56,522 nt of DNA, taken from sequence record PQ783785, one strand, 5' to 3'. Source of the DNA: Escherichia phage PDP46. Shown here piece by piece: positions 276 through 7,143 of this stretch; the stretch's first letter is position 1, and each line of letters begins with the position of its first letter. The translations under genes and the position numbers were made by a program. The notes below the pieces were generated by a model. The model did not search any database. It had not been told where the DNA came from and saw only the letters and a program-made list of their open reading frames with translations.

Positions 276-911
276 ATGAAAATTTCAGACCGGGCTAAAA
301 GGGCTGCTCTGGAGTTGTCGCCGGAACAGCTCAAATTCGCCAACCTGTGGTTAGATCGTGTCAATAACGGTTTCAGCAATACGCGATGCGTTTTAGAGGC
401 TTATCCGGGTCACACGTCTGATGCAGCGGCTGCAACGACCGCACACCGCCTTCTGTCGAATACGAAGGTGTTGAACTATCTGGACGCGATGGGAAGCCAT
501 GCGCTTGAGTCTGTCGGGGAATCGTTAACGAGTCGTGTCGAGTGGTGGAAACGAGCGGCAAGCACGGCTGAAGAATTACTGGAACCATACTGTCAGCGCG
601 TAATCGTCCCTGGTGAAGACGATACAGAAGCGAAACACCTGTGGGTGAACAGTACCGACGATATCCCCAGTCATCTGCAACAGTACGTAGTTTGCTACAA
701 ACGTTACATGCTGGGCGGATACATTCTGGTGACACGTGAACTGTTCGACCCGAAAACTCGTGCAAAAGCGTCTGAACAACTGGATAAAATCACCGGGAAC
801 AGTATTGACCGTGTGGAATTGTCTGGTGTGGTTGGAAACGTGGTTCAGAGTGTTCCTGAAGGTGCAACCATCGACGATATCGCGCAACTGTATCAGAAGG
901 CACTTAAATAG
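276..911 (+). CDS. Terminase small subunit (TerS-like)
   Basis: ORF 159..911 trimmed to Met40 (ATG 276) with GGGAGA 7 nt upstream; ALELSPEQLKFANLWLD and TRCVLEAYPG segments resemble small terminase N-termini; lone rightward unit ending at a hairpin terminator. Confidence 0.55.
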   Translation: MKISDRAKRAALELSPEQLKFANLWLDRVNNGFSNTRCVLEAYPGHTSDAAAATTAHRLLSNTKVLNYLDAMGSHALESVGESLTSRVEWWKRAASTAEELLEPYCQRVIVPGEDDTEAKHLWVNSTDDIPSHLQQYVVCYKRYMLGGYILVTRELFDPKTRAKASEQLDKITGNSIDRVELSGVVGNVVQSVPEGATIDDIAQLYQKALK

Positions 912-1002
912 GCGGTTGTTCCGGCTTAAATAACGCCGGAAACCGTTTGCGTTTTCGATAAACAGGGTTGAGTGGTGCGATGGTACAGGGTAGGCTGTTA
1001 AA

Positions 1003-1022
1003 GCCCCTTACGGGGCGTTTTA
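1003..1022. terminator. Intrinsic terminator hairpin (GCCCC-TTAC-GGGGC then GTTTTA), possibly bidirectional
   Basis: GC stem plus T-rich tail between convergent terS and the leftward early operon. Confidence 0.5.
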
Positions 1023-1226
1023 GAGCTTATCACGTAAAATCGCTATTTCGCTCATTGCTGAAAACATGTTTGATTTCATGCGATCAGATTTTTCGATACG
1101 ACATTTATCGTTGATTATAGAAATGGCGATATTGAAAGCCTCAATTTTCGCTTCTTTTATCGCTTGTTTACGGGGTTTTTGTTTTACCTTCGGTATTTCA
1201 CGAAGGCATTTTGGAATATAATTCAT
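1020..1226 (-). CDS. Hypothetical early protein
   Basis: 68-aa ORF, last gene of the leftward operon driven by the promoter at ~1473. Confidence 0.4.
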   Translation of the reverse strand: MNYIPKCLREIPKVKQKPRKQAIKEAKIEAFNIAISIINDKCRIEKSDRMKSNMFSAMSEIAILRDKL

Positions 1227-1414
1227 TAACGACCGTAACCTGTTGCTTCATCAAATTCATTACTGGACATATAAGAACCTTCAACCAAACCAAACATTTT
1301 TGCTTCGATTGGTTTTACACGATAAGCGAAAATTACACCGACCTGAAAAGCACATTCACCATATTCAGCTACGATATATTTTTCACACTCTGCTTTAGTT
1401 TCGAAGTTTTTCAT
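1226..1414 (-). CDS. Hypothetical early protein
   Basis: ORF 1226..1429 trimmed to ATG (MKNFETK) with GAGGAG 6 nt upstream. Confidence 0.4.
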   Translation of the reverse strand: MKNFETKAECEKYIVAEYGECAFQVGVIFAYRVKPIEAKMFGLVEGSYMSSNEFDEATGYGR

Positions 1415-1447
1415 TTTTCGGCTCCTCACAATTCGTTGTCTATGTGA

Positions 1448-1495
1448 GTAATTTACACTTCCCTGTGTAATCCGTCAAGAATTATTTTAAACTTT
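1448..1495 (-). promoter_or_regulatory. Conserved early promoter copy 1 (UP element AAAATAATTC, -35 TTGACG, 17-nt spacer GATTACAC.., -10 TAAATT)
   Basis: Motif GTGTAATCCGTCAAGAATTATTTTAAAC on the + strand, reverse complement reads as a sigma70 promoter pointing left; -35 at ~1473-1478. Confidence 0.65.
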
Positions 1496-4567: not shown

Positions 4568-4589
4568 GTTCGACGCGCTCCAGTAATTT

Positions 4590-5243
4590 TTACTCAGTGA
4601 AAAGTTTCACCAACAGTTTGTTAATGTCAGCAGCATAAGCAGCAGCATCAGCAGCATCAGCAGCATAAGCAGCAGCATCAGCAGCATCAGCAGCATAAGC
4701 AGCACGAGCAGCAGCACGAGCAGCAGCACGAGCAGCAGCATAAGCAGCATAAGCAGCACGAGCAGCATCAGCAGCATCAGCAGCAGCATAAGCAGCACGA
4801 GCAGCAGCACGAGCAGCATTCTGTGATGGGTTATTAAGAAAATCTTGAATCAAATTAAAGTCGTTAGTGTAAGGTCGAATTAATTCGATGTTCAACAAAG
4901 CACAATCGCAAGCGAACCGAACGATTTTTTCTTTCGATAAGATTTTCCCGGCTAACCATAACAAGTCTGAAACGGTATTTTCGCCACCGATTAGACTAAT
5001 AATTCCAACAGGTTCGTCAGTGTTGTTAGTCTGAATGATAAAACGTTTAAAACCTTCCTGACATGCGCCAAAATTTTTCAGTTCTTGTTTAGTGATTTTC
5101 ATACATGTAACCCTCTTGTTTTCTTGAATGTATGTTTCAATAATATTCGGTTTTACATAATCATGTTGATACGTCTGTACACAGCTTTCAGACCAACCAC
5201 CGGAAATAAGTAAGTCTTTCATCAAGCTGTTAACAATATTCAT
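4590..5243 (-). CDS. Hypothetical protein with C-terminal Ala-Ala-X tandem repeat
   Basis: ORF 4590..5303 trimmed: the track start is the TTG of the -35 box; ATG (MNIVNS) has GGAGGG 8 nt upstream; C-terminal ~65 residues are AA[R/Y/D] triplets. Confidence 0.5.
   Translation of the reverse strand: MNIVNSLMKDLLISGGWSESCVQTYQHDYVKPNIIETYIQENKRVTCMKITKQELKNFGACQEGFKRFIIQTNNTDEPVGIISLIGGENTVSDLLWLAGKILSKEKIVRFACDCALLNIELIRPYTNDFNLIQDFLNNPSQNAARAAARAAYAAADAADAARAAYAAYAAARAAARAAARAAYAADAADAAAYAADAADAAAYAADINKLLVKLFTE
4611..4822 (-). repeat. In-frame 9-bp periodic tandem repeat (GCT GCT NNN)
   Basis: GCAGCA-rich + strand run encoding AARAAYAADAAD...; an antisense poly-Leu ORF is an artefact of it. 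Confidence 0.7.
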
Positions 5244-5272
5244 ATTTGTAACCCTCCGTTGTTTTGTTGATT

Positions 5273-5320
5273 GTAGATTACACGTCTTTGTGTAATCCGT
5301 CAAGAATTATTTTAAACCTC
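5273..5320 (-). promoter_or_regulatory. Conserved early promoter copy 3 (-35 TTGACG, -10 TAATCT)
   Basis: Motif GTGTAATCCGTCAAGAATTATTTTAAAC; -35 at ~5298-5303; RBS GGAGGG and ATG follow on the minus strand. Confidence 0.7.
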
Positions 5321-5379
5321 TGTTACCACCTGTCACCCGTGGTAAACTGTACAGAACAGTTACAAACGGACCGATAACC

Positions 5380-7143
5380 ATGAATAAGTTTACTGGAAAT
5401 ATTCATAATTACCCGCGTTGGCGGGATGCTTACGCAAACGACGAACGTATCTGGCGAAAAGGTCAGCCACGCCCGGATTACAAACAGTGTTACATTGACC
5501 GTATTAACCTGTTAAATCGTATGCGCACGGATCGGGCAATTGTCCCGGTACTGAAAAAGTATTACGAAACAAACCCAGTAGCATTCATTCTCGACTGGGC
5601 GTTTACTTATGACCCGCGTAACGTCGGTACTGAGTACCCGCCTAACATGCCTTTCTGCCTTTTCGAACGTCAGATCGACATGGTTCAATTTGTTTATGAA
5701 GCGCTTGAGGACAAAGAAAAAGGGCTTTGGGAAAAATCGCGAGACTATGGTGCGACCTGGGTAGCCTGTGGTTTGTCCGTGTGGGCGTGGCTGTATCGTC
5801 CCGGTTCTTCAGTTGGCTGGGGATCACGTAAAGAGCAGCTTGTCGATAAACTGGGTGACCCGGATAGTATTTTTGAAAAGATTCGCCAGATTATCCGCGC
5901 ATTACCACCGGAATTACGTCCTGTTGGCCTGCGTGAAAAAGACCATCTGGTTTACATGAAATGTATCAACCCTGAAAACGGTGCAACAATTACTGGTGAA
6001 GCTGGCGATAATATCGGTCGTGGTGGTCGTAAATCTGTCTATTTCTTGGATGAAGCGGCACACGTAGATCGTCCTGAACTGATCGAAGCGTCGTTGTCAG
6101 CTAACACCAACGTCCGTATTGATATCAGTTCGGTTAATGGCGTTGGTAACGTTTTTTATCGTAATCGTAAAGCTGGTCTGGAATGGGAACCTGGCAAGAA
6201 ATTACCCCGTGGTAAATTGCGTGTAATGGTTCTTGACTGGCGTGATCACCCGGCTAAAGACGATGAATGGTATAAGCGAGAAAAACAATCGTTCGCTGAA
6301 AAAGGTTTACAGCATATTTTCGCACAGGAAGTTGACCGCGATTATGCCGCTGCTGTTCAGGGCGTGTTGATTAAAGCTGAATGGGTACGCGCTGCTTTTG
6401 ACGCGTTCCGTGATACAGAATGGCGCAAAGCTAACGGCTTACTTACACCAACAGGTCAACGTATTGCCGGACAGGACGCCGCAGACGGTGGTGAAGATGC
6501 CAGCGCGCTGGTAATTGCTCACGGTGTATTCCTGACACATCTACAGCTTGACCACAGGGGCGCTGAACTGGCTGCACCAGGGATGTTGACGATGGCTAAC
6601 ATGCTGGGTGTTGATGAATACTGGTACGAAGTTAACGGTGTTGGTACAGGCGTTAAAGTAGCGGCAAATGACCGGAAAGATACTTTACGCTTCCGTGTGC
6701 GCCCGTGGTTACCGAATGGAAAAGTTGTGGACCCGGGTGGTGATATTATCGGTGGTACGAAACCTGGTGACAAAGACCGTAAATCAAACAAAGATTATTT
6801 CTCAAATTATAAAGCACAGGCTTCGTGGGCGTTACGTTTGCGTTGCCAGCGAATTTATAAATGGTATGTGGAAGGTCAACCACAGGACCCAGACGAAATT
6901 ATTCTGATTGACCCGTCACTGGAAAATGCACAAAGGTTAGAAGCTGAGTTAAGCCAGCCAACGTATACCAGTAATGGTGCAGGGAAGATTGTGATCGACA
7001 AGAAACCAAACGGAAGTAAGTCACCAAACTTTTTCGATGCTGCGGTTATTGCACTATCACCAAAACGTACCGAATTCGTTGAAGAACCGTTTACTGGCGG
7101 TGTGAATCCTGTTGGTACTCCTGAATATGGTGACATTTTTTAA
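5380..7143 (+). CDS. terL: Terminase large subunit
   Basis: 587 aa; deviant Walker A-like KSRDYGAT, size and position upstream of portal. Confidence 0.85.
   Translation: MNKFTGNIHNYPRWRDAYANDERIWRKGQPRPDYKQCYIDRINLLNRMRTDRAIVPVLKKYYETNPVAFILDWAFTYDPRNVGTEYPPNMPFCLFERQIDMVQFVYEALEDKEKGLWEKSRDYGATWVACGLSVWAWLYRPGSSVGWGSRKEQLVDKLGDPDSIFEKIRQIIRALPPELRPVGLREKDHLVYMKCINPENGATITGEAGDNIGRGGRKSVYFLDEAAHVDRPELIEASLSANTNVRIDISSVNGVGNVFYRNRKAGLEWEPGKKLPRGKLRVMVLDWRDHPAKDDEWYKREKQSFAEKGLQHIFAQEVDRDYAAAVQGVLIKAEWVRAAFDAFRDTEWRKANGLLTPTGQRIAGQDAADGGEDASALVIAHGVFLTHLQLDHRGAELAAPGMLTMANMLGVDEYWYEVNGVGTGVKVAANDRKDTLRFRVRPWLPNGKVVDPGGDIIGGTKPGDKDRKSNKDYFSNYKAQASWALRLRCQRIYKWYVEGQPQDPDEIILIDPSLENAQRLEAELSQPTYTSNGAGKIVIDKKPNGSKSPNFFDAAVIALSPKRTEFVEEPFTGGVNPVGTPEYGDIF

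Follow-up and report, generated by a model that had tools for sequence, protein, structure and literature searches.

In SPP1, gene 1 immediately precedes gene 2, the large terminase gene (terL). We analyzed the terminase locus of Escherichia phage PDP46 (sequence record PQ783785), a stretch of 56,522 nucleotides that we call the window, where 4.5 kb of opposite-strand genes separate the putative small terminase gene (terS, 276-911, + strand) from terL (5380-7143, + strand), unlike the gene order of SPP1. The closest described systems are the 9NA-like phages. 9NA itself uses pac-site headful packaging, and the small genes scattered among its assembly genes were already remarked upon in 2014 (Casjens et al., PMC4153490). 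The split arrangement of terS and terL is also already known for these phages, from GenBank annotations and partly in print (PMC4153490). Our results make it very likely that four things hold together: the window is a 9NA-like genome, its TerS is a genuine protein of the G1P type, the terS-terL split is inherited across the clade, and the hyperplastic interval between the two genes consists of three promoter-headed modules that recombine at copies of their promoter. The gene identities, the clade-wide separation, the promoter repeats, and the module junctions within the repeat core are observed directly.

A megablast search with bases 1-7200 returned 24 phage records, all of them 9NA-like siphoviruses of Salmonella, Escherichia, and Klebsiella, with AVIO78A and PJ16 at the top (around 94-95% identity). 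Over this region the identity is 94.6% across 79% of the bases, which by nucleotide identity and synteny places it among the 9NA-like phages (Nonanavirus/Sashavirus). The genome beyond position 7200 aligns with AVIO78A at 96% identity, with 81% covered and gene order in agreement. The ends of the window align with the ends of the AVIO78A record (position 1 with AVIO78A 1, position 56522 with AVIO78A 57811), and the GenBank records of Sasha, Sergei, and AVIO78A are opened at this same conventional start point. Judged from these alignments, the window holds the whole genome of a virulent 9NA-like siphovirus (Nonanavirus/Sashavirus), which, on the precedent of 9NA, is presumably circularly permuted. 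The 9NA-like phages (9NA, Sasha, Sergei, Solent, AVIO78A, PJ16, and KarinMuster, from the genera Nonanavirus, Sashavirus, and Carvajevirus) encode TerS and TerL proteins 83-100% and 87-100% identical to those of the window. They share with it the record start, the promoter motif of the interval, and the order terS, leftward block, terL, leftward block, portal, but differ from it in the content of the interval.

The interval between terS and terL (912-5379) spans 4,468 bp and holds 12 leftward open reading frames (ORFs) in the ORF map. An earlier sequence-only reading of this DNA, which had placed the two genes about 4.4 kb apart with twelve leftward genes between them and terL starting at 5380, was correct in these respects. 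It was also right to describe terS as a lone rightward gene, since the preceding gene on the circular map (55390-56193) is leftward. We then combined the tblastn coordinates of TerS and TerL in every record holding both (n=30). The two genes are adjacent in none of the 30 records and separated in all of them, with gaps ranging from 893 bp in Sasha to 5,642 bp in phi_270. The gap is about 1,570 bp in Tbat2_2, about 2,100 bp in Henu15, about 2,240-2,490 bp in the Proteus phages, 2,256 bp in 536P12, 3,138 bp in 9NA, 3,554 bp in Carvaje, 3,782 bp in PJ16, 3,902 bp in SP-062/069, 4,219 bp in AVIO78A, 4,560 bp in Kpn BU9, 5,051 bp in BDX09P1, 5,425 bp in Sergei, and 5,527 bp in Solent. The 30 records include relatives from Proteus and Morganella at 32% TerS identity, and the order terS before terL is retained throughout. 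In the Proteus phage Isfahan (TerS 32%, TerL 60%), terS and terL are nine leftward genes apart, and another seven lie between terL and the portal gene, while a metagenomic relative (TerS 29%, TerL 39%) has three genes in 1.5 kb between terS and terL. The separation is unusual, as had been noted, in that it departs from the canonical adjacent order: terS is not the gene immediately upstream of terL. On the strength of these gene orders, it is the inherited architecture of the whole 9NA-like lineage and is ancestral to the clade.

This comparison bears on the suggestion that a cassette was inserted between the two genes. Since all 30 records have gaps of 0.9-5.6 kb, the separation is not an insertion into this genome. 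One could still argue for a recent event in the window genome or its immediate ancestor that split an adjacent terS-terL pair, given that what fills the interval is a mosaic in part peculiar to this genome and that the shortest gap, in Sasha, is only 893 bp. Yet no record of the clade has adjacent genes, relatives at 32% TerS and 60% TerL identity still have 1.6-2.5 kb of leftward genes in between, the relative at 29% and 39% has a gap of 1.5 kb, and the interleaving recurs between terL and portal and further on. Such a recent insertion is therefore extremely improbable. What survives of the cassette idea is the modular nature of the interval, where promoter-headed modules are gained or lost among relatives and one gene is unique in the clade; the split itself is ancestral. 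For annotators, a terS found apart from terL gives no ground for doubting the terS call or for inferring a recent insertion. A further relative, on a Logan contig (SRR31341459, positions 1-8833) with a TerS 51% identical to that of the window, shows nine leftward genes downstream of terS, and the 8 kb of downstream sequence examined contained no terL. The gap may thus be even larger, or the order different, in unsampled lineages.

The interleaving is not confined to the two terminase genes and affects the whole left 17 kb of the window. After terL come a leftward block (7481-8686), the portal gene (8822-10177), a leftward block (10211-12040), a rightward stretch (12148-14282), and another leftward block (14272-17222). 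The first of these leftward blocks parts terL from portal, the second parts portal from the next rightward genes and includes a dUTPase gene, judged from the annotation of AVIO78A, and the third parts the head-morphogenesis gene from the capsid block. In this lineage, on the reading that we favor, opposite-strand blocks of small accessory genes flank each of the genes for packaging and for the head, namely terS, terL, portal, and head morphogenesis.

The identity of terS was examined independently of its position. The + strand ORF spans 159-911, and the annotated ATG at 276, with a GGGAGA ribosome-binding site ahead, gives a protein of 211 amino acids. GenBank records of relatives label exactly 276-911 "terminase small subunit" and the 587-residue protein "large terminase subunit", and in tblastn the TerS of the window is 100% identical to those of AVIO78A and KarinMuster. 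It matches PHROG 51, "terminase small subunit", with E=8e-11 over residues 2-195. Two word-indexed searches for homologues did not go below 51% identity, but an exhaustive HMMER search identified 27 homologues, down to around 24% identity, and those at 25-40% provided the links to PDB and Pfam. Terminase_2 (PF03592) is matched by 16 of the 30 aligned members of the TerS family at E<0.01 (best E=3e-15), and a relative with an 83% identical TerS has a precomputed PF03592 match. Searched against PDB, a profile of the distant homologues matches the SF6 G1P small terminase (3zqp, E=4.8e-7) in two collinear stretches, which correspond to the helix-turn-helix (HTH) domain and to a conserved C-terminal segment (profile positions 149-184 against G1P residues 115-149). 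The same profile also matches the small terminase of Pam5 (E=6e-4). At its N-terminus, the protein encoded at 276-911 has an HTH DNA-binding domain with the fold of G1P, and in the metagenomic relative mentioned above (TerS 29%, TerL 39%) the TerS homologue and terL share one strand, with the homologue upstream.

Because this sequence-profile and fold evidence is independent of position, we assign 276-911, on homology, as a genuine small terminase of the SPP1/SF6 G1P (Terminase_2-like) kind. The distance from terL, which had been taken to weaken the call, does not do so: the match to PHROG 51, the profile match to 3zqp, and the Terminase_2 matches of 16 of 30 homologues do not depend on where the gene lies. 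Relative to the G1P proteins of SPP1 and SF6 (Terminase_2; PDB 3zqp, 2cmp), the TerS of the window is longer (211 amino acids against 164), shares around 22% sequence identity, and in an AlphaFold monomer model is predicted to add a beta-rich insertion of around 45 residues (approximately 107-153). Other candidates for terS were scanned against PHROG and Pfam, and none matched a terminase family. These were the ORFs flanking terL (4590-5303, 7112-7270, and 7283-7447), the gene upstream of terS (55390-56193), and the ORFs at 52.3-53.9 kb, among them that of a ParB-like protein and 53239-53463, which corresponds to AVIO78A_093, a gene with the words "terminase small subunit" in its note. The two outcomes that the sequence-only reading had named as fatal to its terS call, a match of 276-911 to a non-terminase family and another terS beside terL, were both looked for and neither was found.

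The iterons that had been described beside terS are real, and the terS call no longer depends on their position. They lie in a 604-bp intergenic region (56194-56522 plus 1-275) with 34% GC, in which two clusters of TAGTGCAYGTTGTGYATTAGCTGT-like iterons (56226-56402 and 14-210) flank an AT-rich "atagata" center. This architecture is kept in 9NA and Carvaje with completely different iteron sequences. Across the same comparison TerS remains 83% identical, whereas the neighbouring protein of 267 amino acids (55390-56193, - strand; phrog_25538, function unknown), whose gene adjoins the iterons, drops to 43% in 9NA and 31% in Carvaje. The co-variation of the iterons with either protein as their binder is only suggestive at the level of sequence. 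One could propose that 276-911 is an HTH regulator or origin-binding protein acting on the neighbouring iterons, the real TerS lying unrecognized elsewhere. We regard this as very unlikely. The homology reaches past the HTH, with a second G1P stretch and with PHROG 51 over residues 2-195, half of the distant homologues score as Terminase_2 with a best E=3e-15, in the metagenomic relative the homologue precedes terL in the same orientation, and no terminase family was matched beside terL or among the small ORFs scanned, 53239-53463 included. Besides, the iterons are wholly different in the window, 9NA, and Carvaje while TerS stays at 83% identity, and the 267-residue protein suits the role of iteron binder at least as well.

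For the same region, an origin or a regulatory site is at least as good a fit as a pac site. A second copy of its AT-rich element, 109 bp long and 91% identical, lies at 17340-17447, flanked by iteron-like CAGCTAATACA repeats, between divergent copies of the promoter motif described below (17216, -, and 17522, +). Other repeats were noticed along the genome. The gene of the 267-residue protein contains a perfect 21-bp tandem repeat in 5.6 copies (55515-55632), which encodes the heptapeptide VEAPVAR. A leftward gene contains, at 41599-41852, a 30-bp tandem repeat in 8.7 copies (93% matches); its copy number differs from AVIO78A, where the aligned stretch holds the DNA polymerase gene and a neighbouring hypothetical gene.

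The protein encoded at 5380-7143 (+ strand, 587 amino acids) is the large terminase subunit. It matches PHROG 2 (E=4e-17), it is 100% identical to the TerL of AVIO78A and PJ16 in tblastn, and its residues 325-559 match the nuclease domain of Sf6 gp2 (PDB 4idh, E=2e-10; 4idh and 5c10 at E about 1e-10). The nuclease domains are homologous, and the pairwise search detects similarity to Sf6 gp2 in this C-terminal domain only. The N-terminal ATPase domain has a weak match to Terminase_6N in Pfam. Vibrio phages whose TerL is 49% identical to that of the window have no detectable homologue of its TerS, and in one of them, Vibrio phage 1.032.O (MG592416.1, 1-7000, a partial record), a tailspike-like gene precedes terL instead of terS.

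The interval itself is headed at three points by copies of a 45-nt direct repeat, found at 1448-1492 (P1), 3555-3599 (P2), and 5273-5317 (P3), and again at 8709-8753. On the minus strand it reads GTTTAAAATAATTC-TTGACGG-ATTACA, followed by a spacer and a -10-like hexamer. It has the make-up of a sigma70-like promoter with an AT-rich upstream element (GTTTAAAATAATTCTTGACGGATTACA), and a consensus scan independently lists three of these sites, of which that of P1 lies at 1478-1450 (- strand; repeat family D2). Its 18-nt core motif, TAAAATAATTCTTGACGG(ATTACA), has 14 copies in the genome against 0.06 expected. Three are inside the terS-terL interval (1472-1489, 3579-3596, and 5297-5314), and the others are at 8733-8750, 10956-10973, 12098-12115, 17216-17233, 17522-17539, 25542-25559, 39501-39518, 44411-44428, 44474-44491, 49771-49788, and 51998-52015. 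Ten copies are oriented leftward and four rightward. For each aligned copy except the weak one at 39501, a ribosome-binding site and start codon follow around 45-60 nt downstream, and copies of the motif head the variable leftward blocks. In around 3 of 13 copies the spacer holds a palindrome, GATTACAC-N6-GTGTAATC (also GATTACAC-N6-GTGTAA(T/C)C), which may be an operator. The intervals of the relatives hold one to three copies of the motif, and Isfahan has a diverged version, TTGACAGATTACAG.

With the starts of the leftward ORFs refined from the promoter-to-ATG spacing and from the starts of the PHROG alignments, the interval resolves into three leftward modules. Module A (1020-1492) comprises P1 and two small genes (1226-1414 and 1020-1226; phrog_8009 and phrog_5305), and is common to Sasha (98.6%) and Sergei (90%). 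Module B (1482-3599) comprises P2 and five genes (3258-3524, 3028-3261, 2741-3031, 1811-2725, and 1482-1814), with a match to phrog_1229 among them and a full-length RdgC at 1811-2725 (Pfam, E=1e-115). Module C (3560-5317) comprises P3 and five genes (4590-5243, 4373-4567, 4208-4369, 3838-4164, and 3560-3766, matching PHROGs 21347, 31372, 3036, 25300, and 38795). Its ORF 3838-4164 also reaches DUF5490 in Pfam at 26.9 bits, just below the cutoff of 27. Its first gene (4590-5243, phrog_21347) encodes an Ala-rich repeat protein (AARAAYAAADAAD...) and contains 9-, 12-, and 30-bp tandem repeats at 4627-4809; the length of this gene varies among relatives, and the Sergei version is annotated "direct tandem repeat region". 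In total, 10 of the 12 leftward ORFs match a PHROG or Pfam family, namely RdgC and nine PHROG families of unknown function. For ORF 2741-3031 (- strand, 96 amino acids), neither PHROG nor Pfam gave a match, and the 9NA-like records contain no homologue. Its best phage matches are in Klebsiella phages with genomes of around 76 kb, and one of 137 kb (46-50% amino acid identity), and in an Erwinia jumbo phage (38%). From this distribution, it is probably a recent single-gene acquisition. The other breakpoints between the window and AVIO78A coincide with gene boundaries.

The window thus carries a mixture of what is found in its relatives: the module A version of Sasha and Sergei, the RdgC module of AVIO78A, PJ16, and Sergei, the version of the Ala-rich repeat gene found in 9NA, Sergei, and 536P12, and ORF 2741-3031, unseen elsewhere in the clade. 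In Sasha, the leader of module A is joined straight to the terL-proximal flank, such that Sasha 1704-1741 matches both 1453-1490 and 5278-5315 of the window. 9NA and 536P12 lack module B, and in them a P1-type left flank is joined to the right flank of P2. A six-way alignment revealed an invariant 25-nt core, CCGTCAAGAATTATTTTAA, around which the flanks swap partners, and both the P1-P3 junction of Sasha and the P1-P2 junction of 9NA and 536P12 fall inside this core. The finding of insertions and deletions bounded by the motif corresponds to two distinct events. We infer that the repeated promoters would be recognized by the host RNA polymerase early in infection and that homologous recombination between their copies would add or remove whole modules, so that relatives would differ in the size of the gap, between 0.9 and 5.6 kb, with terS and terL unmoved. 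Single genes would also be replaced at gene boundaries, as may have happened with ORF 2741-3031.

Several points weigh against the joint reading that we favor. In a direct Pfam scan, the 276-911 protein itself scores 14.9 bits with Terminase_2, under the cutoff of 26.1 (E=0.044), so its placement in the family is transitive, through its homologues, and a shallow profile made of close relatives retrieved noise alone from PDB, such as designed helical bundles. The junctions within the repeat core fit recombination but neither prove it nor give its direction, that is, gain or loss. This class of promoter is not exclusive to accessory genes either, since the copy at 17522 (+) heads the rightward block leading to the capsid gene. 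Finally, the function of the promoters and the timing of their activity are predictions from sequence. The same holds for the description of the leftward genes as early genes, for which the sigma70-like promoters at the head of the blocks are the one support.

The signals around terS and terL were searched for by folding and by motif comparison. Directly after the terS stop codon, a hairpin at 912-946 (-16.9 kcal/mol) is followed by a U-rich tail (UUUGCGUUUUCG). A second hairpin, at 1003-1016 (GCCCC-UUAC-GGGGC, then GUUUU), is placed where terS and the leftward gene 1020-1226 converge, and is a candidate bidirectional terminator according to the folding. The terminator that had been attributed to terS is therefore plausible from the two hairpins, but weak, as a consensus terminator scan reported neither of them. 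The hairpin-bearing stretch 996-1024 is duplicated around gp02 in Sasha (995-1023 and 1247-1275 of that record), a gene that the window lacks. This duplication suggests that the terminator hairpin of terS is also a recombination junction. A candidate late motif shared by terS and terL, ACCCGTGG-TA-CTGT at 225-240 and 5335-5350, was rejected, as the two sites have 3 mismatches and a further copy lies inside the tape-measure gene. Nothing comparable was found upstream of the portal gene and orf12148, and the search gave no convincing shared rightward signal. In the organization that we propose, terS and terL would be transcribed separately, from separate late signals.

These observations can be set against the idea that the separation is kept under selection and is not a neutral hyperplastic gap, for instance if terS were held beside a site acting in cis (pac or the iterons), if it were dosed apart from terL, or if the leftward units acted as transcriptional insulators. 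Across the clade, terS (beside the iteron and AT-rich region) and terL keep their places, and the genes between them change. In addition, terS has its own hairpins, and the starts of terL, portal, and orf12148 are each just 32-70 nt away from a divergent promoter copy. However, no late promoter or regulatory motif shared by terS, terL, and portal was found upstream of these genes, the AT-rich element is not unique to terS, given its second 109-bp copy at 17340-17447, and a gap that shrinks to 0.9 kb or holds 16 genes suggests little constraint on its content. We consider maintenance by selection to be rather unlikely on this evidence.

The turnover of promoter-headed modules that we favor has a counterpart in T4-type phages, the PeSL (promoter-early stem-loop) cassettes (Arbiol et al. 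2010, PMC2839356; PMC4122927). Those phages, like the window, have many copies of a strong sigma70-like promoter motif in hyperplastic regions of small ORFs, and the differences between relatives likewise end in the repeated motif (PMC2839356). The PeSL type also comprises an associated stem-loop serving as terminator, and the formation of mini-circles. The two systems differ in several respects: the window is a 56-kb siphovirus and not a T4-type myovirus, the motifs are unrelated in sequence, and the window has a stem-loop, the palindrome, in only around 3 of 13 copies, with a putative role as terminator. By this analogy, the turnover of the interval resembles the modular shuffling mediated by PeSLs in T4-type phages (PMC2839356). 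A more ambitious version, in which the 25-nt core is a portable PeSL-like recombination junction that shuffles early-gene modules between fixed packaging and head genes, and in which late genes and leftward promoter-headed modules strictly alternate over the first 17 kb as a regulatory design under selection and not as accumulated clutter, is possible but somewhat doubtful, and we offer it tentatively. If whole modules are exchanged at promoter copies, 9NA-like phages could serve as a compact system for the study of accessory-region turnover. Promoter-bounded modules are not newly established as a principle by this locus, and what it would add is a modest extension of one already known from the PeSLs of T4-type phages.

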